A stretch of 64,000 nucleotides of DNA from Candidatus Woesearchaeota archaeon (GTDB lineage Archaea > Nanobdellota > Nanobdellia > Woesearchaeales > UBA10216): NCBI GenBank assembly GCA_016185705.1, contig JACPMZ010000005.1, positions 128-64,127 of the forward strand, given 5' to 3'. Positions 6,645 to 48,610 of the stretch are shown piece after piece. The notes beneath the pieces are model-generated. The model saw only the letters and a program-made list of their open reading frames with translations, was not told the DNA's origin and searched no databases. Every line of letters begins with the position of its first letter. Position 1 is the first letter of the stretch. The position numbers were made by a program, and so were the translations under genes.

Positions 6645-6699
6645 CGTGGTTGTCCGCATAGGCATAGTCAGGTTCAGCGGCATTTTTCTCGCCGCTTGT

Positions 6700-6748: not shown

Positions 6749-6775
6749 GGCAGAGCATGCATAAAATTGACTTAT

Positions 6776-7929: not shown

Positions 7930-8323
7930 ACAGGGTTATCTCCATTCGCTGCACGGCTTTGATCATGTCCAGGTAGCCCGCAGATGTTTTGTTGTGCTTT
8001 ATCTGCAGCGCTTTGCTTTGAAGTGTGCGGAAGAAGTCAACGAGCATCAGCTTGGTTTTTTGTTCGCTTTCAAGTATTACGTCCACGCCCGTTAGCGTTT
8101 CTCCGTCAAATTCGGCTCTGCTATTCTTTTCAGTGATAAGCAAATCGTCTACAAGCTGGTCTGCCAGCACGTTCGCTTCGCCCAGCTTGGTTGTTCTGGT
8201 AATCTGCTTGCTCCGGCCGCTGTTGTAGAATATCTCAAACACTGCCAGGTTTTCCATAGGCGTATAAGTCTTTACAACTACCTTCAGAAGACTGACCTGA
8301 ACCGTCCTAAGGCTTTGCTCCAT
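7922..8323 (-). CDS. hypothetical protein (133 aa)
   Basis: ORF with ATG. TATA GTTTATAAATT at about 8349-8360. Coupled to 7396..7929. Confidence 0.5.
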   Translation of the reverse strand: MEQSLRTVQVSLLKVVVKTYTPMENLAVFEIFYNSGRSKQITRTTKLGEANVLADQLVDDLLITEKNSRAEFDGETLTGVDVILESEQKTKLMLVDFFRTLQSKALQIKHNKTSAGYLDMIKAVQRMEITLYD

Positions 8324-8424
8324 ATACCCTGCTTATTCCGCTCTGTATGTTTATAAATTTTTCTTTGTGTGGGTAATGTCAAGTTGTGTGTCCTGCAATC
8401 CTGAGCTTGCCGATGCCTGCTTGG

Positions 8425-8473
8425 CTGATTTTTTTCTCCCCCCTTATTTTTTAAGGGGGAGGAAAAAAATCAG
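8425..8473. repeat. CCCTCC/GGAGGG-family hairpin (about 21-bp stem, 1 mismatch)
   Basis: CTGATTTTTTTCTCCCCCCTT ... AAGGGGGAGGAAAAAAATCAG. Confidence 0.85.
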
Positions 8474-8571
8474 AGCAGTGTGCGACGGTTTTGCCACTTA
8501 ACTTGACTTCACCCTTTGTGTGGGCCATATTGACAAGTTCACGCAGCCTCGCTCTGTTGCTGGCTTCCCTT

Positions 8572-8617
8572 CCTGCTTTTTCCCTCCCTTAAATATTTAA
8601 GGGAGGGAAAAAGCAGG
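8572..8617. repeat. 46-nt perfect palindrome with a CCCTCCC/GGGAGGG core
   Basis: CCTGCTTTTTCCCTCCCTTAAAT|ATTTAAGGGAGGGAAAAAGCAGG. Confidence 0.95.
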
Positions 8618-8667
8618 CAGAACAAGCGTTGGCATTGGCGGAAAATAGTTTCAGAACTGGTGCAGAG

Positions 8668-9186
8668 CTATTTCTCCTTAACAACCTTTATCGTAAATCC
8701 GCAGGGCATTTTTTTGGCAGCCCGCTTTAATGCTTTTCTTGCGACATCCAGCCTGTTGGGGTTGACAGTTACTGTGAACAGTTTTTCACCCTCGCGGACT
8801 TGCAGTGCTATGCCTATTGGCTTTCCGAAGCTTTTCTGCATTCCTGTGCTTACCCTATCAGCGCCTGCTCCTGCTGCCAGCGGGTTTTCCCTTAGAATGT
8901 GGTAGGGATATTTTCTTATTTTGAAGAAAAAGCTGCCCGCCGCTTCCTTCTCAAGCAGCTTGAGGCTTGTCATTCTCGCTGATTCTATGGCTTCCTGCCT
9001 TATCTGTATGGATGCTTTCGGAATCAGGTCAAGCGTGTACTCGCGCTTCGTTTCAGTCCCCATGTTGAAGCGCGTTATTTTCCTGGTCGGAGTTATTCTT
9101 ATGAACGACTTTTTCTTGAACTTGGATATCCTTGTGTATGGCCTTTCAATCCTGCGGTAAGCCCGCCATCTTCTTAGCTTTGGCAT
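8668..9186 (-). CDS. rpl10e: 50S ribosomal protein L10e (uL16)
   Basis: MPKLRRWRAYRRIERPYTRISKFKKKSFI... is a typical L10e N-terminus. TATA TTTAAATA at 9210-9217. Confidence 0.93.
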   Translation of the reverse strand: MPKLRRWRAYRRIERPYTRISKFKKKSFIRITPTRKITRFNMGTETKREYTLDLIPKASIQIRQEAIESARMTSLKLLEKEAAGSFFFKIRKYPYHILRENPLAAGAGADRVSTGMQKSFGKPIGIALQVREGEKLFTVTVNPNRLDVARKALKRAAKKMPCGFTIKVVKEK

Positions 9187-9261
9187 GTGTAAAAAGTGTC
9201 TTGCGTGGGTTTAAATAGTTTACTGATAAGTTTTTAATACACGCGCAACTACTTTTCACCT

Positions 9262-21827: not shown

Positions 21828-22729
21828 AGTGCTGTAGAAAATCTTAAGTAGCTGTCTTCCCAAAAGGGCTGTTGCCCTGATTGGGAAGAGCAGGGCGGAG
21901 TAGTGGCTCCGCCATGAAAAAGAAAGAAAGATTGTATAGAAAAATAATGCGGTTATGGAAACAGGCAGGCTTGCCTGCTTACCTACACAGGTTTGGTCCG
22001 AAAAAGTACAAAAGCGTTTTTCTGGCTTTCTGCTGGTTTGTGAACCAGCAGTGGGCGCATAGTTTGCGCCGTACTCAAGAACTCTTATTTGAGTTGGGTT
22101 TTCCAGTTCCGCATTGGACTACGATTCAGAAAGCTTCTGCCCGTATGAGCAGAATTCTTAGCTTGTTTCACAAGCTGACTGTCAGCTCTGAGAAGAGCTA
22201 CATTTGTGCTGTTGACAGCACAGGATTCTCACTCACTAACCCAAGCAGGTATTACACTAACATCTTTCAGGTGAAGGTTAGCTGTCCTGCTAAGCTTAGC
22301 GTTCTGGTTGATACCAGAACGAGCAAGGCTTTAGCCTTGTGCTTTCGTGCGCGACCAGCGCACGATGCGCGAGACGTGCCTTATCTGCTGAAGAATGCAG
22401 CAGTTTTGCCTGAGAAAATCGTAGGCGATTCGGCCTATGACGCTGAAGACAACGTCTTCAAGCCATGCTTCAACAAGCATATCGCTGCAATCGTTCAAGC
22501 CGAGAAAAGGCTGGGAACGTGGTTTTTATCGTCATAAAATGCGTAAGCATTATGACTTACGAACCTACCACCGAAGACCGGTGGTAGAAGGTTTCTTTTC
22601 AAGGCTTAAGCAACGTTTTGGAGGCAGCTTACGCTGCCATTCTGCACGCACACAGCGCGCAGAAATTTACGCGAGAGTTATACTACAGAACTTAAGTTCT
22701 GTAATTCACAGACTTTTTCTACAGCACTC
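21828..22729 (+). mobile_element. IS element (DDE transposase, IS4/IS5-like), 902 bp, with 8-bp target-site duplication
   Basis: Terminal inverted repeats AGTGCTGTAGAAAA (21828-) and TTTTTCTACAGCACT (-22728). They are flanked by the direct repeat CAGTCATA at 21820-21827 and 22730-22737. Confidence 0.8.
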
Positions 22730-22784
22730 CAGTCATAGAAACCTATATAAACACGTTTCGGGATTAAGGAGACATGGTTCTTGA
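21914..22784 (+). pseudogene. DDE transposase split by a +1 frameshift
   Basis: AVDSTGFS and GDSAYDAE in the first frame. PRKGWERGFYRHK...YHRRPVVEGFFSRLKQRFG in the +1 frame. The frames switch near 22490-22500, and I see no slippery heptamer there. Confidence 0.7.
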
Positions 22785-24313: not shown

Positions 24314-25306
24314 ATGAGAATAAACAACAGGGTCAATAAATTCTTTGCCGCTGCTACTGCGACGGTTGTTGCGATGGCAATTGCCGTGCTGCTTCTTGCT
24401 ACTGCTGCCTACGCGCAGGCACAGGGAGGATTGGCTGGCAGTTGCGGCAATGGTGTTTGTGAGAATTTTGGATGCCTGTCTTTAGACTGCGCAGCGCCGG
24501 AAACGTGGGAAAACTGCGCCCAGGACTGCCCGCCGAGTTGCAATGATGGGTTCAGGAACCAGGACGAAACAGGTGTTGATTGTGGCGGAAGCTGTTTTAA
24601 GAAGCATGTGCTCGAGGTGTGCGATGGAAAGGACAATGACAAAGACTGCCTGGTAGATGAGGACTGCAAAACCAATACGGGGAAGGTTGTTTCGGGGGGA
24701 GCTGTGCTGCCTCCCAGGAATGTTCCCGCAAAATCTGAAAAGTCCATCGTTGTAACTTCTGTTCCTTATCAGATTACAATTGGCCCTTCAGGGGAGATTA
24801 CAGTGACAGGCAATTCTTCACCAGTCAATCTTTCTGAAATCTGGCGCTTGGTTAATTCTTCCGGCACGCGTTCTGTACAGGACGCGAGTACAACTAAAGA
24901 ACAGGTTGGTTCAACTGAAACAGTAACTTCAGATGCACCTTTTTCCAGTTCAGCAACTGCCGAGCCTAGTGAGCCTCTGCCTACGCCAACTGTAATGAAT
25001 GTGGTTGCAGTTTCTGAACAAGATGAAAGCTTGATTAAGCCTGCACCTCCAGAAGAACCAAAGGAACTGATTGTTGAAGTGCAGGAAGAGGTTTACGAGT
25101 CTCCTCCTCCCTCGAATGGCCTCAGTAGGCTTCTGAGATTTTTAAACCGTGATTCGTGGGGAAAGCAGCCAGTCGAGGATGCGCCAAAGCCTGAAGATGC
25201 CAAAGAAACAGATGCCAAAGAAACAAGTGACGCTTACCAGAAGAATAAGGTAGTAAAGGAAGAAAGCCAATCACTTTTTACAAAAATGGCATCATGGTTT
25301 AGATGA
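24314..25306 (+). CDS. secreted/anchored Cys-rich protein with a low-complexity S/T/E/P/K tail
   Basis: N-terminal hydrophobic anchor, then CGNGVCE...CNDGFRNQDETGVDCGGSC...CDGKDNDKDC. GGGGGG-type SD before the ATG. ATGA overlap with the next gene. Confidence 0.65.
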   Translation: MRINNRVNKFFAAATATVVAMAIAVLLLATAAYAQAQGGLAGSCGNGVCENFGCLSLDCAAPETWENCAQDCPPSCNDGFRNQDETGVDCGGSCFKKHVLEVCDGKDNDKDCLVDEDCKTNTGKVVSGGAVLPPRNVPAKSEKSIVVTSVPYQITIGPSGEITVTGNSSPVNLSEIWRLVNSSGTRSVQDASTTKEQVGSTETVTSDAPFSSSATAEPSEPLPTPTVMNVVAVSEQDESLIKPAPPEEPKELIVEVQEEVYESPPPSNGLSRLLRFLNRDSWGKQPVEDAPKPEDAKETDAKETSDAYQKNKVVKEESQSLFTKMASWFR

Positions 25307-28300
25307 AACAACTGCTGCCTTCAGTTTTTGTAGTCTGGCTGCTTGTGTTTGCGCAGGTAAGCTATGGCCAGTCGCTTTCTGCAGCCAGCAGCATAACAGA
25401 GGTTGAGCCAGGAGTAAATTCCGGGGACGAGATATCTGTCCAGGACGATTCCTGTTCTTCCGCGGTTGAATTGGCACTCGGGAACTGGGACAGCTTTAAC
25501 AATATCAACCCTTCAGGTGATGTTGACTGGTATAAGTGGAACCTTGTTTCTGGCGGAAAATTTACTGTTGACGTTGATGTTCCCTCTAACAAGGACTATG
25601 ACGTTAAGGTATATAAGACCTGCGGGGGCAGCGTAATCTGTAGTTCAGCAAAGGGGCGCGGCTTGGACGAAAAGTGTAGTGCTGACGTTTCAAGCGGCTG
25701 GGTTTATGCCATGGTATACGGATACCAGGGAGACTCTGGTTTTTTGGAATTGTACTCAATTCGGGGCACTTTTTCACCGAATGCAGATCTGGTTCCTGCA
25801 CCCATAACAACTTCCCCTTCAAACCCAATCGAAACAGATTCCGTGACAATCCGATACGGGTCTACCAACATAGGCGCATCAGACATAATCACTGCATATA
25901 CAAGCAAGTTCTACATTGATAACAATCTCGTCCAGACCTGCACAAGTAGTAATGGAAAGCCGGCTGGAGCATCCGGGTTTTGTACATACACCTCAAAGCT
26001 TTCAGACGGCACTCGTGCGCTAAAAGTAATTGTTGACGCCGATAGACAAGTTCCTGAGTCCAACGAAGGCAACAATGAAAAGACTTCAAGTCTTAAGATT
26101 TTGCCCGACATTGACCTCAGGGTTGTTGACATATACACAGAACCTTCATCTCCTGACGACAGGAACAGCTTTAATTTAAGGGTCGTTGTAAGGAATGACG
26201 GGAAAATTTTTTTTAGCAATTTCAACACCAGGGTTTATCTTAATGGCCAATACTTCGGCGATTGTACTCACATTCTTCCAATGTTTGGCAATAGCGAAGA
26301 GACCTGCAAATGGGATAATCTCAGGTGGTCGGCAAACACTTACACGGTAAGGGCTGTCGCTGATTCAAACAGTGAAATTGAGGAAAAGAACGAAAACAAC
26401 AACGAGCGTGAGGAAACGGTAACTGTAACTCATGAGAACCAGTACGACCTAATTGTAACTGAAATCCTGACTGAACCCTCAAGCGTTAACGATCAGACAA
26501 CGTTCTCTATAAAGCACCTAATCAAGAACAACGGCCCAGACAGGATTTCCTCTCACACTGTAAGCAAGCTTTATAGGAACAATGAGCTTATTCATATTTG
26601 TAGTCACAGTGCAGGCTTTGATTCCGGCGAAACCAGGATTTGCACACTCCAGAACCAACGCTGGTCTTCGGGCACTTATGAGGTTAAGGCAGTGGCGGAT
26701 GCTGACAGTGAGATTTCAGAGACTGATGAAGGCAACAATCAGAGGAAAGAAGAATTCCGTGTTGATGAATCCTGTGTTGATAATGACGGTGACGGCTATG
26801 GCACTGGCTGCAGCAAAGGCAGTGACTGCAATGATAACGATAGAAACATCAATCCGGGCCAAGGTGAAATCTGCGGAGATGGACTTGACAATAACTGCAA
26901 TGGACAACAAAATGAAAACTGCTGCTCTCCAGAAAAACCTTACTACTGCACTAGAACAGATGGCTGCTGGCTCAACAAAGAAAGATGCGACACCGCAATT
27001 ATGTGTGGTGGCAGATGGTGGGCATGCAACGAGCCAAGCAAGTACAACATAAAATGCGTTAATGACGAGCCGGGCTGCTGCCTGCCACAGCACCCTTACT
27101 ACTGCCCCGAAAACAACTTCTGCTTCGGCGCTGACGGCTACTGTGACGGCAGGCCAGTGTACAACTGCAACGGTAAATATCAGGTCTGCAGCGAAAAGAA
27201 TTACTATGGTACGTGCTTTGGAGACGTGTTAAGGTGCTGCCCATCCGGAGAAAGCTGGTGGGAGAGCGATAAGCAGTGCCATAAGAGCTCAGAACCGCCG
27301 AAGTGCGCAGTGCCTGACGGCAGCTCTGCCAACTGCGACTGCGACACCGACTCGGAATGCAAAGCAGCTGACGCTTCCAGGCCTTACTGCGGAGAGGGAG
27401 GCAGTCTGTACGACGTCAGGACACCACAGGGCTTCCACGCCTGCCTCGCCACGAAGCCGAAGTATTGCGGCGATGGCATATGCGAAGGCAGCGAAACTTT
27501 CAGCAGCTGCAACAAGGACTGCGCGCAGAATGCGCCCAAAGGAAAGATAACTGTATCAGTAACACACTCGCAAGCAAAGCTGCCAATAAAATATGCAGGA
27601 ATATACGTTGATGGAAGCTTATCAGGGGGGACTGACCAGTTCGGCAAAGCTGTTGTTGAAGTTCCTTATGGAGTTAGGCATGTAAGGGTAAACTGTTTTT
27701 CCGGGAGCTTTTGTGGAGAACAAACAAGGGATGTGAAGAAAGAGCAGGAATTCATGAGTTTCTCCTGCGAATGCAGCGATGGAGATCTGGACAGCGATGG
27801 ATTCTCAGACCAAGATGAAATTTTAATAGGCAGCGACCCGCACGATGCCAAAAGCTATCCAGAAGGATTGACTTACAATCCTGTCAAATGCATTGCAGAT
27901 ACGATAAACATACTTGTGGTATGGCTTCGCGGTGGCGACCTCATACAAGCACATACAGCTGTTGTTCAAACTCTTAGTTCACCGGAAGTAAGCAGTGTTG
28001 CCGCGAGCGAACAGTCAGCAGTGATACTTCAAGCGCTTCAGCAAAATTATCCCGATGCCAGATTAGATGTCCAAAGCGGAATTACAATTCAAAATGCAGT
28101 AGAAAGGGCAGAATACATAGATGCAGTCCTCACACGGGATGGACTCCTGTACGTAATCAGTGATAACGAAACGCAAACAACTGCCATTGTGCAGATGCAA
28201 GCATCGTGTGTCGGGACCATAGTGGGCGCTGCTTATGGCGTAGGCCGCGGCATAGAGGATGATATCAGCATTCTAGAACTTCCTGTAATAGCAGTGAAGG

Positions 28301-29571
28301 GGCTCCTATTTGTTGTGGCAAATGCTGACGAGCTTAGCAAAGTTTACGACGGCTTTCTGGAAATGGTAGACGGGTTTATGGAAGTGATAAAAAATTTTGA
28401 TTTTGCCGAAACACGCTACCACCTTATAAAGTTCATATTTGAAGAAGGGAGAAAAACAAACCCTTACCGCGAAGATAAACAAAACGACAGGCACGCATAT
28501 TATCACTACCAACTTGGCTTCTTCTCAGGCTATGTAACAGGATACATTATTGAACAGGTTGTCTTCTTGAAGGTTGCCTTTGCGGCAGTAAAAACTGCCT
28601 TCAAAGCGAGCGGAAAATTGCTGTCGCGATTATCGGGTGGCGAGAACGTGCTTGAACTGCTGGCGGCTATTACAAAACACCCGGCGCTTGGTATAGAAAT
28701 AGCAAAAAAAGTCAGCAACCTCCCTTACGTCAAAGGCGCTGTACAACTGTGGGCCAACGACGAACTTATCCTGCTTGGAAAGCTTACAAAATATAATGAA
28801 AATTTTGTGAAAACTCTTACGAAAGCAGAAGCGCAAAACGTCCTTAAACTTACAAAAAACATCCCCGATGCAAGTCTTGAGAAGCTCGTTACAAGCAAGC
28901 TCGGTCAGCACACGCTGAAAGCCGCAGACGCCACCGACGGCCTCATAGCAAAGCAGGCGAAGCTTGTGGAAAGGTGGGGGGTTAAGAATGCTGATGATGT
29001 GGTCACAAAATGCACTCTGTTCATTTTCTGCAATACTGACAGGATAAAAGATTTGAACAAGCTACTAAAGGCCGCACCCGATGAGTTTGCCAACAAATTG
29101 AAAGTAGAAAATGCGCATGGATTGCTCAGCTATAAACACCTTGATGAGCTGACGGAAGCATTAACTGAACTGAAAAGCGTAAAAGGATTTGACGATGTGG
29201 CAGGCCCACTAGCCAACCAGAATACATGGACAGGCCCAGCGTTCCAGTTAAGAAAAGGACTTCAGCTTAGGAAAGCAGGGAATACGGTTGTGGAGTTTGA
29301 AAGAGGTACTGGTAGCACATTCATAGATATAGTATACAAAAAGCCAAATTCCGCAGTTGAAATTTATATGGAAACAAAAAACACGGTTTCAATAGACCCC
29401 AACTTTCTAGTTTCTTTGAAAAATCAATTAACGAAGTATTACGCAGAAACAGGCGATTGGGATAGAGTTAGATTATCTTCTGGGAATGGAATTCCGCCAG
29501 AAGTAAGAAAAGAGTTGGTAAATGAATTTGGAGAAAGCGCCGTTGAAAAAATATTAAAAGGTGATATCTGA
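25303..29571 (+). CDS. giant secreted surface protein: PPC-like domain, 3 CARDB-like repeats, Cys-rich region, TSP3-like repeat, AT-rich C-terminal region ending in a PD-(D/E)xK-like motif
   Basis: Signal peptide. GDVDWYKWNL...YAMVYGY. Three repeats ending NEGNNE, NENNNE and DEGNNQ. DNDGDGYG..DCNDNDRNINPG..CGDGLDNNCNG. DSDGFSDQDEILIGSDPHD. C-terminal FIDIVYKK...VEIYMETKN. Confidence 0.85.
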   Translation: MKQLLPSVFVVWLLVFAQVSYGQSLSAASSITEVEPGVNSGDEISVQDDSCSSAVELALGNWDSFNNINPSGDVDWYKWNLVSGGKFTVDVDVPSNKDYDVKVYKTCGGSVICSSAKGRGLDEKCSADVSSGWVYAMVYGYQGDSGFLELYSIRGTFSPNADLVPAPITTSPSNPIETDSVTIRYGSTNIGASDIITAYTSKFYIDNNLVQTCTSSNGKPAGASGFCTYTSKLSDGTRALKVIVDADRQVPESNEGNNEKTSSLKILPDIDLRVVDIYTEPSSPDDRNSFNLRVVVRNDGKIFFSNFNTRVYLNGQYFGDCTHILPMFGNSEETCKWDNLRWSANTYTVRAVADSNSEIEEKNENNNEREETVTVTHENQYDLIVTEILTEPSSVNDQTTFSIKHLIKNNGPDRISSHTVSKLYRNNELIHICSHSAGFDSGETRICTLQNQRWSSGTYEVKAVADADSEISETDEGNNQRKEEFRVDESCVDNDGDGYGTGCSKGSDCNDNDRNINPGQGEICGDGLDNNCNGQQNENCCSPEKPYYCTRTDGCWLNKERCDTAIMCGGRWWACNEPSKYNIKCVNDEPGCCLPQHPYYCPENNFCFGADGYCDGRPVYNCNGKYQVCSEKNYYGTCFGDVLRCCPSGESWWESDKQCHKSSEPPKCAVPDGSSANCDCDTDSECKAADASRPYCGEGGSLYDVRTPQGFHACLATKPKYCGDGICEGSETFSSCNKDCAQNAPKGKITVSVTHSQAKLPIKYAGIYVDGSLSGGTDQFGKAVVEVPYGVRHVRVNCFSGSFCGEQTRDVKKEQEFMSFSCECSDGDLDSDGFSDQDEILIGSDPHDAKSYPEGLTYNPVKCIADTINILVVWLRGGDLIQAHTAVVQTLSSPEVSSVAASEQSAVILQALQQNYPDARLDVQSGITIQNAVERAEYIDAVLTRDGLLYVISDNETQTTAIVQMQASCVGTIVGAAYGVGRGIEDDISILELPVIAVKGLLFVVANADELSKVYDGFLEMVDGFMEVIKNFDFAETRYHLIKFIFEEGRKTNPYREDKQNDRHAYYHYQLGFFSGYVTGYIIEQVVFLKVAFAAVKTAFKASGKLLSRLSGGENVLELLAAITKHPALGIEIAKKVSNLPYVKGAVQLWANDELILLGKLTKYNENFVKTLTKAEAQNVLKLTKNIPDASLEKLVTSKLGQHTLKAADATDGLIAKQAKLVERWGVKNADDVVTKCTLFIFCNTDRIKDLNKLLKAAPDEFANKLKVENAHGLLSYKHLDELTEALTELKSVKGFDDVAGPLANQNTWTGPAFQLRKGLQLRKAGNTVVEFERGTGSTFIDIVYKKPNSAVEIYMETKNTVSIDPNFLVSLKNQLTKYYAETGDWDRVRLSSGNGIPPEVRKELVNEFGESAVEKILKGDI
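29281..29568 (+). other. candidate restriction-endonuclease-fold (PD-(D/E)xK) toxin tip
   Basis: D codon at 29326-29328 and E-T-K at 29371-29379, both on hydrophobic strand-like segments, followed by LKNQLTKYY. This is a motif-level call only. Confidence 0.4.
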
Positions 29572-30212
29572 TGGACTATGCAAGGATACAATATGCACCA
29601 ATACGAAGGGCATTTAACAGGGATTTTGCGTTTGGCTTAGTCAGGCAAGTTGCAGATGGTTGCAAAAGCGTAAATAAAAGTGCTGAAAAAGAGATGCTGC
29701 TAAGAGATGTAAGCGATGCAGAACTGGGTGAAATTTTGTACAACAACGGCGAAGGGGAGTCGTTGTTTTTCCAAGTAAATGATTTGTACAATTTTGCAAT
29801 CCATGCAGGACCCAAAAAAAGTAATGTGCATATTGTAATAAGTGTGCCCTTGCCTTTCCTAAGAAAAGCGAATAGCAAAAGAGTGATAGAAGATATTATA
29901 AGCAGGAGCAAGGCGGTATATGATTATCTGCGCCCCGAGTATGCAATTGGAGACGAAGAAGGGCTGTTTATTGATAAAAAGGTAGAATATAAGGATGGCG
30001 TGTTCTGGCTGAATTTTTACAGCCCGCAAGTAGTGGAAAGAATTGGCATAGAAAAACTGAAAAGCGTGCCGTATGGAACAATAGACGAACTGGCAGACGG
30101 CGGTGTGCTCCTAATCAGGGGGCGAACGCCTGATGAGAATAGTGAACACCGAACGGAAATTAAGCGCTACCTGTTCGGAAGAGGATTTGTCAACAAATTA
30201 TTTGGAAGATGA
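29571..30212 (+). CDS. cytoplasmic 213-aa protein in the immunity-gene position
   Basis: The ATG shares a nucleotide with the stop of 25303..29571 (TGATG). ATGA overlap with the next gene. No signal peptide. AT-rich like the preceding toxin tip. Confidence 0.6.
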   Translation: MDYARIQYAPIRRAFNRDFAFGLVRQVADGCKSVNKSAEKEMLLRDVSDAELGEILYNNGEGESLFFQVNDLYNFAIHAGPKKSNVHIVISVPLPFLRKANSKRVIEDIISRSKAVYDYLRPEYAIGDEEGLFIDKKVEYKDGVFWLNFYSPQVVERIGIEKLKSVPYGTIDELADGGVLLIRGRTPDENSEHRTEIKRYLFGRGFVNKLFGR

Positions 30213-33200
30213 ACAAGATTAAAATAACGGAACGCGCAGCTTACGCATTACTCATAGCACTGCTGCTCCTGCTCGCAGCATCCTTCCTCCCTCTCGGCAA
30301 TGGCGGCAGCGGCAGTGAAAAAGCTGTATTGCTCTTGCAGCAGATTGAAGCAGTTGACAACCTTCCTCCTGCTGTTGATGAGAAGATTGAGCCTGCGGTG
30401 AAGGAGCAGGTTAAGGAAGCGATTTATTTGGCGGCTGCTGGGGGCTCGAAGGAAGCTGCTGAAAAAAGGAAGGTTGAGGTGCTTGTGAAGGCATCTTCTG
30501 AGGATGCTAAGAAAGTGATAAAGAAGGCTGGCGGGGAAATATTGAACGTTGTTGACTCTGTTGACAAAACAGCAAAGTATTTCGCAGTGAAGGCAGATGC
30601 CGACAAAGTGGCAGCCATAGCAGCGGGTAATGATGTTTCCAGCATATCGCAAAGAAGCAAGGTTTACCCAACACTTGACTCAAGCGTGCCTGTCATTAAG
30701 GCGGACTCGTTCTGGAATGCCGGCTTTAAGGGCAGCGGAGTAAGGGTAGCTGTGCTGGACACAGGCATAGACAAAAACCACCCAATGCTCAAGGACAAGG
30801 TAGATGCTGAGAGGGATTTCACCGGCAGCGGCACAGCTGCTGACGACTGCGGTCACGGAACCCATGTTGCAGGCATAGTTGCAGGCTCAAAGGCTAACGG
30901 CGGATATGATGGCGTTGCGCCTGACGCGAAGCTGCTGAATGCCAAGGTCCTCACACTTAACTCAAATGGCGAATGCGAGGGAAACGTGGATTACATAATA
31001 GCAGCCATAGGATGGGCTCTTGACCCTGACGGCAGCTCTGCAACCGATGACGGTGCTAAAGTAATAAGCATGAGCCTTGGAGGGAAGGGTGAAACCAGCA
31101 TGAGCCTTGAGAATGAGTTGCAGTCTGCTGTGGCTAAAGGCGCTGTAGTTGTTGTATCAAGCGGCAATTGCGGAAAAGGATGCCCAAGCCCTAACTGCGG
31201 GCAATTCCAGGGAGTAACATGGCCGGGCAACTCGCCAAGCGTCATAACTGTGGGAGCTGTTGACGACTCAAAAAACGTTGCGTGCTTCTCAAGCGGCGAA
31301 AACGTCAAGAACGTGGGCATCAAGCCCGACTTCGCAGCGCCTGGCGTTGACGTGATGTCCTCTGTTCCCGGCGGCTATGAATCAAAGAGAGGCACGAGCA
31401 TGGCAGCCCCTCACGTTTCAGGCGCTGCTGCGCTTATGCTTGGCAAAGACCCAAGCCTGAAGCAGGATGACGTAAAGAGAATTCTTGAAAACACTGCTTT
31501 GGACCTTGGCGAAATAGGGAAAGACACGAGCTACGGCTTCGGCCTTATTGACATGGCAAAGGCGCTTGTTTACAAGGAAGGGCTTGAGTTCAGCATAGGG
31601 CTTGAAAAGCAAATCATAAGCGGCAGCAGTCAGAAGATTACAGTTACGGTTTACGACGACGTTCAGGTTAACAGCGTCAAGGCAACAGTGACGAAGCCTA
31701 ACGGCGCAAAAAGCGCAGAGTTTACCTTTGCTGGCAGCGGCAGCAACGTTTACACTTACGACTACACCGATACTGTTTTGATGGGAAATTACGCTGTTGA
31801 GGTTGCTGTCAATTACGGAGGCACAAGCGGGAGTTCAGGAGCCGGCAGCGAAGGCGGCGGCGAAGCAGGCAGCGGCTCAGATGGCTCATCCAGCATAGAG
31901 GTAACCCAGACAGCCGGCTTCAAAGTTACTTCGCTCACAGGCGACTTCGGAAGCGTTGAGGAGATAAACATTTCGCAGCAGCAGTTCCTGAGCCAGAACC
32001 TTGCAGCCAACGTAACTTTCGCAAACACTGCCGATGTTGAGCTTGTCTTCTCTGCGCTGATGCACTTGCTGAAGATAGATGACGGCTCAATAGGTGCGGC
32101 TCCATCGCAGGAAATAAGATTGCCTGCTGTAACAGTTGCGGCAAATTCGAAGGCAACAGAAGCTGTTAGCAACGCGCTTGAAGTAGGTCCTGGCAACTAC
32201 ACGCTGAGGATAGTGACTGACTACGGCGCAGGGAGTGCGGTGAACGAGATGAACATAACCGTTGTTGATGACTTGGCGCCTGTTATTGCAGGGTATGAGT
32301 ATGACAGCGGCGCATATCAGCGGAGCCCGAGAGTTGCAAAGTTCACGATTTACGAGCATTCTGACATAACAGTTAACATTACGGCAAAAGGAACAGTTAC
32401 GTGCACTGATTCCTGCACAGATGCCTTAACCACTGAACCGATTGACATTAATTACTCTGCTGTTGTAGTGCAGCAGGGCAACGAAAAAGAATTGGCGGTT
32501 ACGCTGTATGAAAACACTGACGAAGCAACTTTGCATTCCGCAGAAATCGGGATATGCGACGAAAGCGGCAACTGCGCAGTAAGCGATGTGCTGGACTTCA
32601 GGGCTGATGCGTGCGAAGGCAGGCACATCCTAATCGCAAAGAGCTATGAAGAGGGCTCTGCATTTGAGCGTGCAGCAGCAGGCCTGTGCATGTTTGCATT
32701 AAACAAAAGCGTAAGCAGGAACCCTCCAGGCAGCTACCTGAAGCAGTTTGACGCTGTAATCTGGAGCACAGGAACAGACCTGGCAAACATTGACGACGCT
32801 GATGCAGCTTCATTGACTGATTATTATGATGAAAAGGGCCGAATAATTGTTGAAGGAAGCGATGTAGCATTCAACCATGTTGATGATGAATTAATGACTG
32901 AAGTGCTGCATTCTGAGCTGGCATATGACCTGGGCATATCGGTTTCTTCAGCTGAAGACCTGAATAATTTAAGCATAAACCACACGCAGAAGCATCCGCT
33001 GCTAAGCGGCATTGAAACTCCGACATTCTTTAACGCAAGCATTGACCCGTTCCCTGACTCAATAAAACCGGTCAATGGCAGCGGGGAGATTGCAGTATGG
33101 GACGGGCTTGAGGAAGGCGGCTCAGCAATTGTTGTTTATGAGAGCCAGCAGAAGCGTTCGCTGTTCCTGCCTTTCAGCATCAATGCACTGAATGAGGCTG

Positions 33201-36200
33201 ACAGGGATTTGCTGGCAGCCAATGCAGTTGACTGGCTGCTGGCAGACACTGCCATAGACATAGTTCCTGCCTCGCTTGACCACGGAATGCTGTTTGAAGG
33301 CCCGGTGGAGTTCACTGCAGTTGTTGAAAGCAGTGGAGGAGCAACAGCAGTGCCTGAAATAAAAATATTTGTTGATGGCAATGAGCAGGACGCTGCTGCC
33401 GGCTTCGGAAATAACGGCGTGTTTGAATACCCTGTAACCGCTGAGCTAAACGCAGGGCTGCATAAAGTAAAAGTAATAGCAAACAGCGACCTGGCGATTG
33501 AAGAAAACAACTACATCAACAACATTGCCGAATATGAGCTTGCGGTTTATCCCCAAAAAGCCGACCTGATTGTGGAAGGGCTGAAATACAGCTATGATGA
33601 CAGCGAGCAGGCAGTTGTTCTGGAAGTGAATGTGTCAAACATGGGCGGAACAGAAGCGAATTCGCTGCTGAGAATCTTCGCTGATAATTCGGAAGTCAGC
33701 TCGCAGCACATACATTTAGCATCTGCTGAAAAAAAGACTGTTATGTTCACGATTCTGTCGGACAAGGGCAATTATGCATACAAGGCAGTTATTGACCCTG
33801 ACAACACAGTAGCAGAGTACAACGAATCAAACAATGAATTGCAGGAAACGCTTTACCTTTGCAGCAAAAGCAGGATTTTAGTGGTGGATGACAACGACGC
33901 AGAATTTTATTCCACTGAGCAGCCGAGCAGCGCACCGCTGATTCTTGATGCGCTGAAGCTGAAGGGCTACTGCACCAGCTACGTCAGCCAGCAAGAAGAA
34001 ATGATAACAATTGAAGCAGCCAATGAATATCCTGTGCTGATATGGAGCGCAGGCGACTACTTTGACGGCGTGCTTAATGAGCAGGATGCTGAGTTCCTGC
34101 AAAACTATGATGGCGCTTTGCTGCTGGAAGGGGCAGACGTTGCTCTTGAGCATGCTGGCAGCAGCTTATTTGAGGAACTGACAGGAAGCGTGCACCTGAG
34201 GGATATGCTGCTGGAGGGTGAAGAAATTCTGCTGAACATAAGTGAACATGCGATAACAGCAGGCATTGAAGAAATCAAGCTGCTCAAAAACGATTCACCT
34301 TATCCGGACAGCGTTCAGCCAGTGAATAGCATCGCGGTAGCAGGATGGGATGACGGCGCAGCAATCACAGCGCTTGAGCAGGACGGCAGGAAAGCTGTAT
34401 TTTACGGATTTTCTGCGGATGCTGTGGAAAACATGGATGCACTGCTTCTGAACACAGTAGAATGGCTGCTCATAGCGCCGAACAACGCTCCTGTAATCCA
34501 CAACGTTACAAATATAACAGCAGATGAAGGGGAAATAGTTTTTGTTGAAGTCAACGCAACAGATGCGGATGGAGACGAATTAACGTACAGCATCAGCGAT
34601 GAACGGTTTGTGCAGAACGGAAACAGATTTGTGTGGCAGACGAACCACACAGATGCCGGAGAGTATGAATTCGGGATTAGCGTAAGCGACGGAGCTGAAA
34701 CCGCAGCTGCACTCATTAATGTAACAGTGCTGGACGTAAACCTGCCGCCAGAGCTGCTTGTAAGCGTTGATTCAGCGCTTGTTCCTCAGGACGTTCCTGT
34801 AAGATACGCTGACGAAGGCGTAGAAGTAAAGTTCAGCGTCCTCGCAACAGACCCTGACAATGATGAGCTGATGTATGAGTGGCTGATAAACGGAACAGCC
34901 GCATCAACAACTGCAAACTTCACCCGCACATTTGCTTACAACGAAAGCGGAACGTACAATGTAACAATAAGGGTAAGCGACGGCCAGGATACAGTATCAT
35001 ATGAATTCACGCTGATAGTAAAAGATACCATGCAGTGCGAACCTGCCAGTGTGCAGCTCTGCGCAGTGCAGGAAGGCGTATGCAGCGAAAGCACGGATAC
35101 GTGCAGCGAAGAAGGCCAGTGGCCTGGCTGCGCCGCAGATACGTATGCAGAACACAGCGAAATGTATGAAGCAGCTGAAACCATGTGCGACCAGCTTGAC
35201 AACGACTGCGACGCACTGACCGACGAGGGCAGGGTGTGCAACACAGCGCCTAAGCTGAACATTGCAAACCAAACTGTATCAGAGAATGAGAAACTGCAGT
35301 TTATCGTAACAGCAGCAGACAGCGAAAATGACGTGCTGCATTATAATGCAGCAGGGCTTCCTGAAGGCGCAGCATTTGATAATGAAACCGCTGAATTTGA
35401 GTGGACGCCTACGTACGAGCAGGCCGGGCTGTACTCGGCAGGGTTTAATGTGACTGATTTGCTGCTGTGGGATTATGCTGAGATTAACATTACAGTGCTT
35501 GAGACAAACAGGCCGCCAGAGTTTGCAAGCATAGAAATGAATGATGCAGTGGATGAGACGGCAGACGCAGTAATAACAGTGAATGCTGTTGACCCTGACG
35601 GGCACGAAATTTTGTACAGCATCAATGATTCCAGGTTTGCGCAGGACGGCAACAGATTTACGTGGACAACAACTTATGAAGATGCTGGCATTCACAGCTT
35701 CCTGCTGACCATATCTGACGGCGACCTCAGCAAGTCAGCAGTGGTTGAAGTTACTGTAACGAATGTGAACAGGCCGCCAATGCTTAATACGGTTGGCAAC
35801 AAAACAGTGCACGAGGATGAAAAGCTGAGCTTTGCGCTGGACGCAGAGGATGCTGATGGCGATTTGCTGAAATATGAGATGGTGACCGACGCTATTGGAG
35901 CATCGCTGGACAGCGAAACAGGGCTGTTTGAGTGGACGCCTGACTATGACGACGAAGGGAAGTATAAAGCAGTGCTTGTTGTTTCAGATTATCTGCTGAC
36001 AGACTATGAAGAAATAAACATAACCGTGCTTAACACCAACCGCAAGCCAAAACTTACAGGGCTGTTCGGAAACTATGCGGTTCTGGAAACTGAGCTGGCT
36101 GTTGTGGGCGTTAATGCAGAGGATCCTGATGGCGATGAGTTGCGTTACAGCATCAACGATTCGAGGTTTGTGCAGGACAGGAATGCATTCAGCTGGCAGA

Positions 36201-37432
36201 CAGGGTATGATGATGCCGGGCTGTATCCAGTCATAGTCACAGTTTCTGACGGTCAGGACAATATTTCAGTGTCCTTTGAGGTGCGGGTGTTCAACCTGAA
36301 CAGGCCGCCGCTGCTGCATGAGATTGGCAACAGGACAGTTAAGGAGAACGAGACGCTGAGCTTCACTTTGGAAGCGGATGACCCTGACAATGAGCCGCTC
36401 AGATTCGCTTTGGAAATGCCAGCAGAACTGGCAGGCGTAATGTTTGATGAGGAAAGCGGAGAGTTTGAGTGGACGCCTTCGTTCAGCCAGGCAGGCATTT
36501 ACAGATTTGCGTTCAGCGTTACAGACTTCCTGCTGCTTGACCTGGAGGAAATAAACATCACTGTTCAGAACGTGAACAGGCCGCCGGTGATACACATGAT
36601 ACTGGTTGAGCCGCCGGGCACGGAAATGCATCCTGGCGAGCAGAAAAGCTTTACTGTGCTGGGCAGCAACGGAAACGTGCATTACGAGTGGCTGCTTGAC
36701 GGCGTAAAAGTGCATGAGTCCAGCTCGACCTACACTTATAAGCCAGGCGCTGACTCTGTTGGAGCGCATGTGTTGAAAGTGAACTTAACTGATGGAGAGT
36801 TCAGCACGTCCCGCGAAATACCTGTAACAGTAACGCAGAAAGCGATTGATTTCCTCGTAAGCGGAGAAGCGGAAGCTGATGAAGGCGAATTAGTGCGGCT
36901 GAGGGTTGAGGTATTCAACGCAGCTGATGCAGCGATAAAAATAAACGACAGCAGGTTCAAAAAATCTGACGGAACCATTCACGGCGCTGGCGAGTGCGGC
37001 GGAGCAGCCGGGGAATGCAAAGATCCCGCGTATGAATGCGTTGCTGAGTGCCCTGACTGCTTTGGAATATGCCACCTTGAAGCTGATTCATTAGTTAAGC
37101 TGTTTGACTGGCAGACGGGCTATAACGATGCGGGAGGGTATGAAATTCTTGTAACAGTTTCTGACGGATTTGCCAGCGCATCCAAAGCAGTAAGCGTTGT
37201 TGTGAGAAATGCGAATGCTCCGCCGTGCGGAAGCTACGGCGACTTTAACGGCGACAAGTCAGTGACTGAGAAAGACGTGCAGATGCTGCTTGACCACATC
37301 AGCGGAAGAAGCAAATTGCTGGATGGCAGATATGCTGATGTCAATGGCGATGGAAAAGTAAATCTCTTTGACTCAATCTACATGCAGCATTTCATAGGAG
37401 GCCATATTAATACGTTCCCGGTCTGCAACTAG
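30209..37432 (+). CDS. giant secreted S8 subtilisin-like protease with CARDB-like and about 8 cadherin/He_PIG-like repeats and a C-terminal dockerin
   Basis: VAVLDTGID, HGTHVAG and GTSMAAPHVSG. Repeats of NRPP...DADGD(E/L)L.YS....F......F.W.P...(D/Q)AG.Y......SDG (about 34490-36600). Dockerin at the end. Confidence 0.9.
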   Translation: MNKIKITERAAYALLIALLLLLAASFLPLGNGGSGSEKAVLLLQQIEAVDNLPPAVDEKIEPAVKEQVKEAIYLAAAGGSKEAAEKRKVEVLVKASSEDAKKVIKKAGGEILNVVDSVDKTAKYFAVKADADKVAAIAAGNDVSSISQRSKVYPTLDSSVPVIKADSFWNAGFKGSGVRVAVLDTGIDKNHPMLKDKVDAERDFTGSGTAADDCGHGTHVAGIVAGSKANGGYDGVAPDAKLLNAKVLTLNSNGECEGNVDYIIAAIGWALDPDGSSATDDGAKVISMSLGGKGETSMSLENELQSAVAKGAVVVVSSGNCGKGCPSPNCGQFQGVTWPGNSPSVITVGAVDDSKNVACFSSGENVKNVGIKPDFAAPGVDVMSSVPGGYESKRGTSMAAPHVSGAAALMLGKDPSLKQDDVKRILENTALDLGEIGKDTSYGFGLIDMAKALVYKEGLEFSIGLEKQIISGSSQKITVTVYDDVQVNSVKATVTKPNGAKSAEFTFAGSGSNVYTYDYTDTVLMGNYAVEVAVNYGGTSGSSGAGSEGGGEAGSGSDGSSSIEVTQTAGFKVTSLTGDFGSVEEINISQQQFLSQNLAANVTFANTADVELVFSALMHLLKIDDGSIGAAPSQEIRLPAVTVAANSKATEAVSNALEVGPGNYTLRIVTDYGAGSAVNEMNITVVDDLAPVIAGYEYDSGAYQRSPRVAKFTIYEHSDITVNITAKGTVTCTDSCTDALTTEPIDINYSAVVVQQGNEKELAVTLYENTDEATLHSAEIGICDESGNCAVSDVLDFRADACEGRHILIAKSYEEGSAFERAAAGLCMFALNKSVSRNPPGSYLKQFDAVIWSTGTDLANIDDADAASLTDYYDEKGRIIVEGSDVAFNHVDDELMTEVLHSELAYDLGISVSSAEDLNNLSINHTQKHPLLSGIETPTFFNASIDPFPDSIKPVNGSGEIAVWDGLEEGGSAIVVYESQQKRSLFLPFSINALNEADRDLLAANAVDWLLADTAIDIVPASLDHGMLFEGPVEFTAVVESSGGATAVPEIKIFVDGNEQDAAAGFGNNGVFEYPVTAELNAGLHKVKVIANSDLAIEENNYINNIAEYELAVYPQKADLIVEGLKYSYDDSEQAVVLEVNVSNMGGTEANSLLRIFADNSEVSSQHIHLASAEKKTVMFTILSDKGNYAYKAVIDPDNTVAEYNESNNELQETLYLCSKSRILVVDDNDAEFYSTEQPSSAPLILDALKLKGYCTSYVSQQEEMITIEAANEYPVLIWSAGDYFDGVLNEQDAEFLQNYDGALLLEGADVALEHAGSSLFEELTGSVHLRDMLLEGEEILLNISEHAITAGIEEIKLLKNDSPYPDSVQPVNSIAVAGWDDGAAITALEQDGRKAVFYGFSADAVENMDALLLNTVEWLLIAPNNAPVIHNVTNITADEGEIVFVEVNATDADGDELTYSISDERFVQNGNRFVWQTNHTDAGEYEFGISVSDGAETAAALINVTVLDVNLPPELLVSVDSALVPQDVPVRYADEGVEVKFSVLATDPDNDELMYEWLINGTAASTTANFTRTFAYNESGTYNVTIRVSDGQDTVSYEFTLIVKDTMQCEPASVQLCAVQEGVCSESTDTCSEEGQWPGCAADTYAEHSEMYEAAETMCDQLDNDCDALTDEGRVCNTAPKLNIANQTVSENEKLQFIVTAADSENDVLHYNAAGLPEGAAFDNETAEFEWTPTYEQAGLYSAGFNVTDLLLWDYAEINITVLETNRPPEFASIEMNDAVDETADAVITVNAVDPDGHEILYSINDSRFAQDGNRFTWTTTYEDAGIHSFLLTISDGDLSKSAVVEVTVTNVNRPPMLNTVGNKTVHEDEKLSFALDAEDADGDLLKYEMVTDAIGASLDSETGLFEWTPDYDDEGKYKAVLVVSDYLLTDYEEINITVLNTNRKPKLTGLFGNYAVLETELAVVGVNAEDPDGDELRYSINDSRFVQDRNAFSWQTGYDDAGLYPVIVTVSDGQDNISVSFEVRVFNLNRPPLLHEIGNRTVKENETLSFTLEADDPDNEPLRFALEMPAELAGVMFDEESGEFEWTPSFSQAGIYRFAFSVTDFLLLDLEEINITVQNVNRPPVIHMILVEPPGTEMHPGEQKSFTVLGSNGNVHYEWLLDGVKVHESSSTYTYKPGADSVGAHVLKVNLTDGEFSTSREIPVTVTQKAIDFLVSGEAEADEGELVRLRVEVFNAADAAIKINDSRFKKSDGTIHGAGECGGAAGECKDPAYECVAECPDCFGICHLEADSLVKLFDWQTGYNDAGGYEILVTVSDGFASASKAVSVVVRNANAPPCGSYGDFNGDKSVTEKDVQMLLDHISGRSKLLDGRYADVNGDGKVNLFDSIYMQHFIGGHINTFPVCN
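37226..37429 (+). other. type-I-like dockerin module
   Basis: GDFNGDKSVTEKDVQMLLDHISG ... ADVNGDGKVNLFDSIYMQHFIGG: two EF-hand-like D.NGDG.V...D segments. Confidence 0.7.
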
Positions 37433-38130: not shown

Positions 38131-39390
38131 TTAGATGCTTTTTCTGAGCAGGAATTTAAAGGCAGGCACCACGTATATGTTTTTGCCTGTTATTCTGTGC
38201 CTTTTTTCCTTATCAGGCGACACTATGTAGCCGTCGTTAACCTTGAATTTGTTCATGAAGGCAAGCAGCCCGCTAAAGCTTGTTTTGCCGTGCTTAATCT
38301 CAATTGGCGTCAATTTTTTGTCTGCAACCACTATGTCAACCTCATTTTTATAAGGGTCTCTCCAGAAGAATTCCGCTTTTAGCTGGTTGACAATCAGCCA
38401 TTTGAACACTTTTGATTTTGAAAAGTCGTCATCCCTGAATAGAAGGTCTGCTGAAATCAGGGCGGGGTAATACTTTTTTAGTTTTCTTTCCACTTTTCTC
38501 CTGCTTCTTGAAAAGTTATACAGCTTTCTTATTAGGAAGGAGTCCTCCAGGTATGCCAGGTAATTTGAGATGGTTTGCCTTGAAACTTTCAGCTCTTTTG
38601 CCAGATCTGACAGCTCTATGAGCTGTCCGGGCTCTTCTGTTATGAGCGCAAGCAGGGATTCCAGTACGGATGCGTCCTTAATCCTGAACAGCCCGGGCAT
38701 GTCCCTGTAAATGACTTTTTCCAGTATGCTTTCTTTCACGTATTTTTTTATTATGTCTTTTTCCATCACGCCTACAAGTTCCGGGAAGCCGAGCGTGAAA
38801 ACGAACTCGTTAAACAATCTTGACAGTTCCCTTTCATAAATTCCTTCAGGCTTAAGAACTGCCCCTTTGAACAGCAGAAATTCTCTGAACGTCAGAGGCT
38901 CCAGCGTGAATTCAAAAAGCCTTCCGGCAAGCGTTTCTTTTGATTTCCTTTTTATGAACAGGGATTCTGAGCCTGAAACCACTATCTTAACCTTTTTCCC
39001 GAGCGCGTCGTAAATTCCCTTTAACTGGCTTTCCCAGCCTTCCAGCTTTTGCACTTCGTCAAGCAGGAGAAGGTGCCTGCCTTTTCCAAAATCAGTTTCC
39101 ATCAGGCGTTCATACTCTCTTATCACCTGCCTTATTTCAGCTTCTTTGAACTCATCAAATGAGAAATAGATTACGTCCCTTGGGTTCATGCCTTTCCTGA
39201 TTGAGTCTTCCGCGACTTTCAGCATCAGGGTAGTCTTTCCCACGCGCCTCATCCCCGTAACTGCTATTATTTGCGGCAGCGGCATGAATTTCAGGATTTG
39301 GCTGTACAGCTCCCTCTCCTTGAACGCAACACTGAACTCCCCTTTCCACCAGGAGTTCAGCTCAACCAAAACCTCTTTAATAGTTGCCAT
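38131..39390 (-). CDS. AAA-family ATPase with a DUF4143-type C-terminus (COG1373)
   Basis: Walker A GMRRVGKTTLM, Walker B LLLLDEVQ, and a C-terminal ...NEVDIVV...PIEIKHGK nuclease-like tail typical of this family. Confidence 0.85.
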   Translation of the reverse strand: MATIKEVLVELNSWWKGEFSVAFKERELYSQILKFMPLPQIIAVTGMRRVGKTTLMLKVAEDSIRKGMNPRDVIYFSFDEFKEAEIRQVIREYERLMETDFGKGRHLLLLDEVQKLEGWESQLKGIYDALGKKVKIVVSGSESLFIKRKSKETLAGRLFEFTLEPLTFREFLLFKGAVLKPEGIYERELSRLFNEFVFTLGFPELVGVMEKDIIKKYVKESILEKVIYRDMPGLFRIKDASVLESLLALITEEPGQLIELSDLAKELKVSRQTISNYLAYLEDSFLIRKLYNFSRSRRKVERKLKKYYPALISADLLFRDDDFSKSKVFKWLIVNQLKAEFFWRDPYKNEVDIVVADKKLTPIEIKHGKTSFSGLLAFMNKFKVNDGYIVSPDKEKRHRITGKNIYVVPAFKFLLRKSI

Positions 39391-41870: not shown

Positions 41871-41920
41871 CAACGCTCAACAAGATAATATTTATATACT
41901 ATTACTGCCAAAAATCGTGC

Positions 41921-48464: not shown

Positions 48465-48610
48465 AGCAGTTACGAATCAGCAACGTGTTTAAATAGTTTG
48501 CGGAGTTGCCGACTTTGTCCGATTAGTTGTTCCTGACCGAATAGTAGCCAAACTGTCCGAAAAGTGAATAACAAACATATTTATAAATAAAAAGAATATT
48601 GTCTTTCGTA

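Follow-up and report, generated by a model that had tools for sequence, protein, structure and literature searches.

We analyzed a 64,000-nucleotide (nt) stretch of DNA from a Candidatus Woesearchaeota archaeon, which is referred to as the window throughout (coordinates are 1-based on the window), and followed up pieces of it around 24314–37432. This region encodes an exported protein of 1422 amino acids (aa), referred to as the toxin for brevity, and immediately behind it a 213-aa protein. The C-terminal tip of the large protein and its small neighbor very probably represent a polymorphic toxin–immunity module. The window encodes a split RNA polymerase B subunit, subunit A', a family-B DNA polymerase and an Lhr helicase, as expected of archaeal chromosomal DNA. 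The RNA polymerase operon (53234–59158, minus strand), with its B subunit split into 526 and 599 aa and an A' subunit of 848 aa, confirms this origin.

Gene order and domain anatomy

Four genes on the plus strand look translationally coupled, since stop and start codons overlap at all three joints. The first gene of this apparent operon (24314–25306) encodes a secreted, Cys-rich protein of 330 aa, the N-terminal hydrophobic segment of which scores 2.48 by hydropathy. No Pfam family matched this protein, and homologs of it are found upstream of the toxin in two related loci, L010 and L015. Its stop codon overlaps the start of the toxin gene (25303–29571) in an ATGA at 25303. The toxin gene and the gene for the 213-aa protein (29571–30212) are joined by a TGATG at 29569–29573, where the last base of the toxin TGA is the first base of the next ATG and the sequence reads ...ATCTGATGGAC...; both reading frames and their overlap are present as described in an initial annotation made from the letters of the sequence. 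A second ATGA, at 30209, connects the 213-aa gene to that of a 2407-aa exported S8 subtilase (30209–37432), in which Pfam recognizes Ig-like, PKD and CARDB repeats and a C-terminal dockerin, with Big_9 and He_PIG among the matched domains. By hydropathy, the toxin and both flanking gene products carry N-terminal signal-like segments; that of the toxin is MKQLLPSVFVVWLLVFAQVSYG, with a value of 1.65 at aa 1 in a 19-residue Kyte–Doolittle window. The 213-aa protein, described initially as having no signal peptide, indeed reaches a hydropathy maximum of only 0.69, and because it contains no hydrophobic segment it is probably cytoplasmic.

The exported N-terminal stalk of the toxin (25303–27783) comprises, according to Pfam and hydropathy, a signal peptide (aa 1 to ~24), a PPC-like domain (aa 73–140), three CARDB domains (E = 1.8e-33) and a MopE-like Cys-rich region (Cu-binding_MopE, aa 508–536). 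The three CARDB domains had been recognized earlier; of the other features named at that stage, the Cys-rich region gives a MopE match, the PPC match is weak and TSP3_bac stays below its threshold in the window protein. The TSP3-type calcium-binding repeat (aa 828–849; 27784–27849), which marks the start of the family-wide conserved region, scores 19.5 bits against TSP3_bac (PF18884; cut-off 25), and its counterparts in relatives score 27–32. A hydrophobic N terminus followed by extracellular-type CARDB, PPC and TSP3 domains is what an exported polymorphic toxin is expected to have. Behind the repeat lie a family-specific ‘pre-toxin’ module (aa 850–1206; 27850–28920), a junction motif, AADATDGLIAKQAKLVERWG (aa 1207–1226; 28921–28980), a helical linker that is weakly alignable between cassettes of differing type (aa 1227–1289; 28981–29169) and the C-terminal tip (aa 1290–1422; 29170–29571), a predicted PD-(D/E)xK nuclease toxin domain. 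No Pfam or NCBIfam family matched the last 570 aa of the toxin or the 213-aa protein.

Near-identical trunks with unrelated tips

An exhaustive phmmer search with aa 853–1422 as query retrieved 44 other representatives; among the family proteins listed, the query's own included, 34 had E ≤ 1e-10 and 15 had E ≤ 1e-30. All 44 relatives share the TSP3 repeat and a region of ~430 aa with invariant Gly, Asp, Tyr and Gln columns, and within the repeat the D, G and E columns of the trunk-module alignment are invariant. The pre-toxin module is characterized by the motifs C-x-G-x3-G-x3-G-x3-G-x2-DD and FQxGFxxGxxxGYxxEQ and contains two moderately hydrophobic helices (aa 986–1004 and 1078–1096). Neither single-sequence nor profile searches with the ~430-aa module gave a sequence match in Pfam, NCBIfam or the PDB. 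The N-terminal stalks vary among the relatives, combining CARDB, MopE, carboxypeptidase-regulatory-like and Fn3_arc domains in differing numbers. Two family loci lie in named genomes, both of them metagenome-assembled genomes of Candidatus Woesearchaeota. A pattern search that was derived from a five-sequence alignment and keyed on the TSP3 repeat was rejected as a source of relatives: most of its matches were unrelated bacterial TSP3 proteins, and only L014, L015 and L024 were genuine.

Several relatives (P0004, P0005, P0008, P0009, P0014 and others) can be aligned to the window protein up to its very end. In many others, the BLAST alignment ends at aa 1285–1303 and is followed by 160–310 unrelated residues. 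Overall, about half of the relatives retain the window tip, and in the remainder similarity peters out at aa ~1230–1290 ahead of an unrelated tail. Homologous trunks with unrelated C-terminal domains are a defining feature of polymorphic toxins (in the sense of Zhang et al. 2012, PMC3482391), and the most direct case is provided by P0008 and P0012. Compared in 40-aa blocks, the trunks of these two proteins are 75–90% identical as far as the motif TAAD(A/T)TDDL(I/L)VKQSKLVQKWG; directly past this junction identity is 25% (10/40), and then none is left. P0008 ends in a tip of the window type, P0012 in a tip resembling the Barnase-EndoU-ColicinE5/D-RelE (BECR) nucleases. At the DNA level, positions 7621–9189 of locus L013 match positions 4229–5806 of L028 with 78% identity, no match extends across the tip and the downstream small genes, and homology resumes at L013 10608 and L028 8045, inside the giant S8 protease gene.

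The initial annotation had placed the exchange boundary at 27860, immediately behind the TSP3-like repeat. This position does not hold, as the 1.1–1.3 kb after the repeat belong to the module that is conserved family-wide. The window equivalent of the junction motif is found at aa 1207–1226, and the exchangeable unit therefore starts ~1.1–1.3 kb further downstream, with exchange at or after aa 1207–1290 (nt 28921–29170). The expectation that trunk identity should collapse was borne out in some relatives, one of the alternative tips being a barnase accompanied by barstar, but the collapse does not follow the repeat. From these alignments, the junction motif at aa 1207–1226 is the likely recombination point. 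Downstream, an S8 gene follows the immunity gene in those related loci that extend far enough, whatever the tip type (L011, L012, L013, L015 and L028); in L014 and L029, probable homologs of the N terminus of the S8 protease follow. A lipoprotein-like gene encoding ~190–230 aa separates the immunity gene from that of the S8 protease in L012 (4481–5146), L014 (7465–8118) and L028 (7232–7810). This intervening gene is kept regardless of tip type and is absent from the window.

Clustering the family members by their last 130 aa revealed several tip groups. The largest, with 11 representatives, features a WGWEH...GS(I/V)..A(Y/F)P tip; P0012 belongs to this group and weakly matches PBECR1, a BECR-family profile. 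The window's tip type has 10 representatives and a second D...ExK type has 5. Two groups of three and several singletons make up further tips; among the singletons are four tails with HExxH motifs, a barnase and a few proteins truncated within the trunk. The barnase is the tip of P0010 (PF00545, 42.8 bits versus a cut-off of 24), which places a recognized toxin family, above threshold, among the exchanged C-terminal domains.

The small gene downstream tracks the tip type across loci, as the initial annotation had predicted. All 8 of 8 window-type tips are accompanied by a homolog of the 213-aa protein with 20–40% identity (window, L009, L011, L012, L013, L015 and, twice, L027). Such a homolog is absent from six loci with unrelated tips (L010, L014/L024, L028, L029 and L030), five of which are independent because L014 and L024 are the same sequence. 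The pattern repeats for two other tip types: BECR-like tips (L014, identical to L024, as well as L028 and L031) are followed by a shared 146–173-aa family, and a third tip type (L030 and L032) by a shared family of 217–230 aa. In L029, an HExxH tip precedes a 225-aa gene unrelated to the others. In L010, the barnase tip of P0010 is followed by barstar (PF01337, 73.3 bits), the gene of which overlaps the toxin stop codon. This barnase–barstar pair serves as a calibration for the genes found at this position in other loci, and a co-varying downstream immunity gene is what characterizes polymorphic toxins. Pairwise identities of the tips and of the downstream proteins correlate, with r = 0.85 and a Spearman coefficient of 0.77 over 28 non-independent pairs.

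Extra pairs of a short toxin and an immunity gene follow the main pair in L010 (spare cassette at 6497–6832), L027 (1043–1807), L031 (583–1413) and L032 (3168–4268). In L010, barstar is followed by a short open reading frame (ORF) that consists of a hydrophobic leader and then DDLLVKQSKLVQKWG..., and L027 contains two tip/immunity pairs in tandem; the two loci stem from the same assembly, and no sequence overlap was found between them. The order in L032 is main toxin, immunity gene, short toxin P0021 and a 234-aa gene. P0021 was grouped with the window-type tip by iterated profile only, and the 234-aa gene behind it gives a distant match to the 213-aa family. L031 encodes an immunity homolog, the short toxin P0041 and a homolog of the BECR-type immunity protein. 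These spare cassettes are complete small genes rather than promoterless fragments, and the short toxins P0009, P0021, P0039, P0041 and P0046 have their own signal peptides. In P0009 (...SFAKA/ADATDD) and P0041 (...LPLEA/ADASPE), the signal-peptide-like end abuts the ADAT junction motif (slash). We infer from this arrangement that full-length toxins may be processed at the same place, which makes the junction motif a possible processing site.

Predicted folds, base composition and surroundings

An AlphaFold2 model of aa 1280–1422, computed from a 13-sequence alignment, reached a predicted local distance difference test score (pLDDT) of 94.1 and a predicted template-modeling score (pTM) of 0.88. 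The model proceeds through two linker helices, a helix, three strands, a helix, a strand and two helices. Its α-β-β-β-α-β core (H31–45, E49–57, E60–67, E74–80, H87–104 and E110–114 in model numbering) is that of PD-(D/E)xK nucleases, and Foldseek matches were almost exclusively to PD-(D/E)xK proteins. Structure prediction thus reproduces, for aa ~1310–1422, the nuclease fold that had been proposed from the sequence. The top matches in the PDB were NucS/EndoMS (2vld and 5gke; E = 2.5e-3, probability 1.0). Others included the YraN-family protein 3fov, Card1, Cdn1, SfsA, Hjc, AgeI, DdmD, Bax1, MunI and BamHI, as well as the CdiA-CT toxin 4g6v at rank 13. Most of the named matches in BFVD were RecB-family, Mrr, restriction-endonuclease, Vsr-like and VRR-NUC proteins. 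A0A8S5LH46 from Siphoviridae sp. ct5tj9 ranked first among the viral structural matches (E = 4.6e-3, 20% identity over 112 columns). The match covers the end of this phage protein, which has 918 aa, carries the annotation M12 metallopeptidase fragment and may likewise be a multidomain protein ending in a nuclease.

The candidate catalytic residues claimed initially are D1342 (29326–28), E1357 (29371–73) and K1359 (29377–79). In the 13-sequence alignment, the aspartate and the glutamate are invariant and the lysine is at least 90% conserved. The predicted model places D1342 on the second strand and E1357-x-K1359 on the third, which are the canonical positions. Since the CdiA-CT toxin 4g6v, found among the structural matches, is a tRNase, the fold is compatible with a DNA as well as an RNA substrate. 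Sequence searches with the tips of relatives returned single weak matches to Mrr_cat, NERD and NA-iREase1 (E = 0.026–0.1), and no Tox-REase profile was listed in Pfam scans of the toxin and the tips. A PDB profile search for the tip gave weak matches only (Cdn1, 0.52; YraN, 1.4), and a single-sequence PDB search with the tip region gave nothing significant.

The family of the 213-aa protein is small: 8 proteins were found at E ≤ 1e-3 in a collection of 5.8 billion sequences, none of them named. A single-sequence PDB search with the 213-aa protein gave nothing significant. TsiV (PF11876) weakly matched 2 of the 8 family members (best E = 0.02, 14.7 bits versus a cut-off of 25) and did not match the window protein itself, so that the likeness to TsiV is a lead, not a finding.

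The GC drop that had been reported immediately after the TSP3 repeat is not seen. From ~27550 to ~29200, GC content is 41–48% in 300-nt windows and 45.0% over 27859–29169, near the mean of 46.4% for the entire stretch, and the preceding Cys-rich stretch (27100–27550) is unusually GC-rich (56–59%). What stands of the original observation is a below-average composition of 37–42% at 29200–30100, including the 213-aa gene; the break lies at ~29200, not at 27860, and is modest. The dip coincides with the tip (39.1% GC; 32% at third codon positions) and the 213-aa gene (42.1%). The recovery described near the following gene was found again, with 50% reached by 30100–30400 and 50.0% over that gene as a whole. 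Other parts of the window are lower in GC, down to 33–35% at 49–51 kb. The low-GC island there (48599–50820; 33–35% versus a mean of 46%) contains an N6/N4 DNA methylase gene (49714–50820, minus strand) beside a 370-aa ORF with no Pfam match and may be a horizontally acquired restriction-modification unit. Positions 1–1000 of the window are strongly AT-rich (32.7% GC) with a negative GC skew.

The surroundings of the operon include, ~1.5 kb upstream of it (21881–22784, plus strand), two overlapping ORFs of 218 and 115 aa, each matching one half of the DDE_Tnp_1 profile; the pair looks like a frameshifted or programmed-frameshift insertion sequence element. The S8 gene is closely followed, on the other strand (38131–39390), by a gene for an AAA_14/DUF4143 ATPase with a helix-turn-helix domain. 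Two large ORFs of 741 and 927 aa follow on the plus strand (39645–44704), the latter with a carboxypeptidase-regulatory-like domain and the former with no Pfam match; their products are probably further surface proteins. PADLOC returned a single weak match, PDC-M20B (E = 0.0014), which could not be interpreted.

Proposed mechanism, alternatives and related systems

The predicted fold, the exchange of tips and the co-variation of the downstream gene all favor the reading of the locus as a polymorphic toxin–immunity module, with the boundary and the compositional details corrected as above. In the mechanism we propose, the 1422-aa protein, with its variable, adhesin-like stalk (PPC, CARDB and Cys-rich region), TSP3 repeat and ~430-aa module, would be exported via its Sec-type signal peptide. 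Its last ~130 aa would constitute a PD-(D/E)xK nuclease, acting on DNA or tRNA, that is toxic once inside a cell, be it that of a competitor or a host. The translationally coupled, cytoplasmic 213-aa protein would bind and neutralize this nuclease in the producer. The unit of linker, tip and immunity gene would be swapped by homologous recombination, with crossovers on the 5′ side at the conserved AADAT...KQxKLVxKWG junction and on the 3′ side within the S8-protease gene, the conserved flank. Such swapping would rationalize why related genomes carry the same trunk with different toxins, each with its own antidote.

Several observations weigh against this interpretation. An identical 213-aa protein is encoded on 8 public contigs, 8 of 8 with the same arrangement, and a toxin of the same length, 1422 aa, is encoded on 3 of the 3 contigs where the upstream gene is complete; the eight showed no polymorphism within the population. 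The 64-kb window contains no spare toxin/immunity cassette, and the GC dip is mild, as the cassette (40.9%) ranks at the 8.8th percentile among segments of its size along the sequence. Pfam and NCBIfam scans of the toxin and a PDB profile search of the trunk identified no known delivery, translocation or releasing-peptidase domain, and the scans of the toxin showed none of the T5SS, T6SS, T7SS, PVC or MuF type; the neighboring S8 protease would be the sole candidate for a releasing peptidase. The structural matches to the tip have modest E-values (best 2.5e-3, none ≤ 1e-3) and template-modeling (TM) scores of 0.33–0.51, and by sequence the window tip matches no curated nuclease family, with no Pfam match at E ≤ 10. 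We regard the tip, on the basis of its modeled fold, as a divergent member of the PD-(D/E)xK superfamily outside the curated families. Many members carry a glutamate (F-E-A) on the first core helix; the window protein and its closest relatives have a glutamine there (Gln1315), so activity could be reduced. In one sub-clade, E-T-S replaces E-x-K. The AlphaFold2 model of the 213-aa protein is of moderate quality (pLDDT 68.9, pTM 0.71), and Foldseek found no credible match to a solved fold for it (TM ≤ 0.33, root-mean-square deviation mostly > 10 Å).

As an alternative, the tip might be displayed on the cell surface and digest environmental DNA or RNA for nucleotide import by a producer that is possibly a small-genome symbiont, with the 213-aa protein protecting the producer's cytoplasm before export, much as barstar does for secreted barnase. 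The Sec export and adhesin-like build of the toxin are compatible with such nutrient scavenging, as are the predicted nuclease fold of its tip, the lack of a translocation domain recognizable by Pfam or PDB profile search and the classical role of barnase–barstar as a pair of secreted enzyme and inhibitor. Scavenging would leave unexplained, however, why the tips on near-identical trunks are unrelated, HExxH peptidase-like and BECR-type RNase-like domains among them, why extra toxin–immunity pairs occur in tandem and why inhibitor and tip diversify so tightly together; we therefore consider it unlikely. It is less likely still that the tip is a catalytically inactive recognition module that, together with the 213-aa partner, serves self/non-self recognition or adhesion instead of killing. 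Hypervariable surface modules have been described in Thermococcales archaea (PMC8416519), and both the Gln1315 substitution and the sub-clade without the lysine would fit an inactive domain. Yet D1342, E1357 and K1359, which are strongly conserved, are all present in the window protein. Genuine toxins paired with genuine inhibitors are found in sister cassettes, and a cytoplasmic partner cannot be a surface co-receptor.

The simplest alternative holds that there is no cassette at all, and that an ordinary conserved C-terminal domain and a conserved neighbor gene have diverged uniformly. Tip identity among same-tip relatives (30–53%) is indeed near trunk identity (~34%), and synteny with the next gene is conserved. 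This explanation is already contradicted by the collapse of identity to nothing past the junction in at least nine trunk homologs, most clearly in P0008 and P0012, where it occurs despite 75–90% identical trunks and conserved flanks, and we give it almost no weight.

The polymorphic toxin–immunity module favored here resembles several known systems. Like the CdiA-CT/CdiI pairs of contact-dependent growth inhibition (CDI; for example that of Burkholderia pseudomallei, PDB 4g6v), it combines a large exported stalk, a variable C-terminal toxin, a junction motif and an immunity gene immediately downstream; extra downstream cassettes also occur in CDI, and the 4g6v toxin shares the PD-(D/E)xK fold. 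In contrast to CDI, a Pfam scan of the toxin and the scanned neighbors revealed no TPS domain, filamentous-haemagglutinin repeats, CdiB or VENN, the conserved junction motif of CdiA. In addition, the archaeon has no outer membrane, and the extra cassettes of relatives carry signal peptides, whereas typical CDI orphans do not. Sec-exported polymorphic toxins of the Gram-positive kind, such as WapA/WapI of Bacillus subtilis and the Rhs/YD-repeat toxins, likewise feature signal-peptide export, a surface stalk, a C-terminal nuclease tip and a downstream immunity gene. The window toxin differs from them in having neither YD/RHS repeats nor a recognizable releasing peptidase, and in a pre-toxin module with no Pfam or PDB sequence match. 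Rhs/YD-repeat toxins have been noted in Methanosarcina (PMC3482391).

VRR-Nuc effectors of type VI secretion systems, with their TsiV immunity proteins, also pair a PD-(D/E)xK-superfamily toxin with a dedicated immunity protein, and VRR-NUC proteins are among the viral fold matches to the tip. Here, however, the TsiV matches are sub-threshold, the window protein is unmatched, components of a type VI secretion system are lacking and the tip does not match the VRR_NUC model. Barnase–barstar is directly represented in the trunk family by P0010 in L010, although neither the window tip nor the 213-aa protein is related to that pair. Structurally, the tip model is matched best by NucS/EndoMS, Hjc, YraN and Card1/Can2-type nucleases, which have its core topology; sequence identity is 14–19%, however, and these enzymes function in DNA repair, Holliday-junction resolution or CRISPR-associated defense rather than as tips of exported toxins.

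Zhang et al. 2012 (PMC3482391) reported polymorphic toxins to be rare in archaea and generally missing outside some methanogens and haloarchaea, and most immunity superfamilies to be absent there. Further archaeal systems, some with PD-DExK tips, were predicted later (PMC6393860), and according to a 2021 paper none of the predicted ones had been characterized by experiment (PMC8416519). In the full-text literature, we found no paper that joins Woesearchaeota with a toxin and an immunity protein; the family may already appear in the main survey of archaeal polymorphic toxins (Makarova et al. 2019, mBio). Our analysis supports the view that the logic of bacterial polymorphic toxins operates in this archaeal lineage. 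As far as sequence comparison goes, the pre-toxin module, the junction motif, the signal-peptide-bearing spare toxins, the tip family and the immunity family match no curated family.

Woesearchaeota belong to the DPANN archaea and probably live attached to other cells. A speculative extension, which we consider rather unlikely, is that the ~430-aa module and the AADAT junction form an undescribed archaeal delivery device, from which a ~215-aa fragment of linker and tip, cleaved at the junction (perhaps by the S8 protease), would enter other cells. If so, this fragment would be identical in form to the signal-peptide-bearing short toxins of relatives and alone able to enter an archaeal or host cell. 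Symbiotic DPANN-type archaea would then wield an exchangeable arsenal against hosts or competitors, with an entry route unlike that of bacterial toxins linked to secretion systems.

Polymorphic toxins are a major currency of bacterial competition, and archaeal ones have so far been computational predictions. The locus provides a clean, internally calibrated archaeal example, in which one trunk carries barnase with barstar in one genome and a predicted nuclease with a new candidate immunity family elsewhere. It thereby supplies a new putative PD-(D/E)xK toxin family together with that immunity family, and the conserved pre-toxin module and junction motif bring toxin delivery in archaea within reach of experiments.

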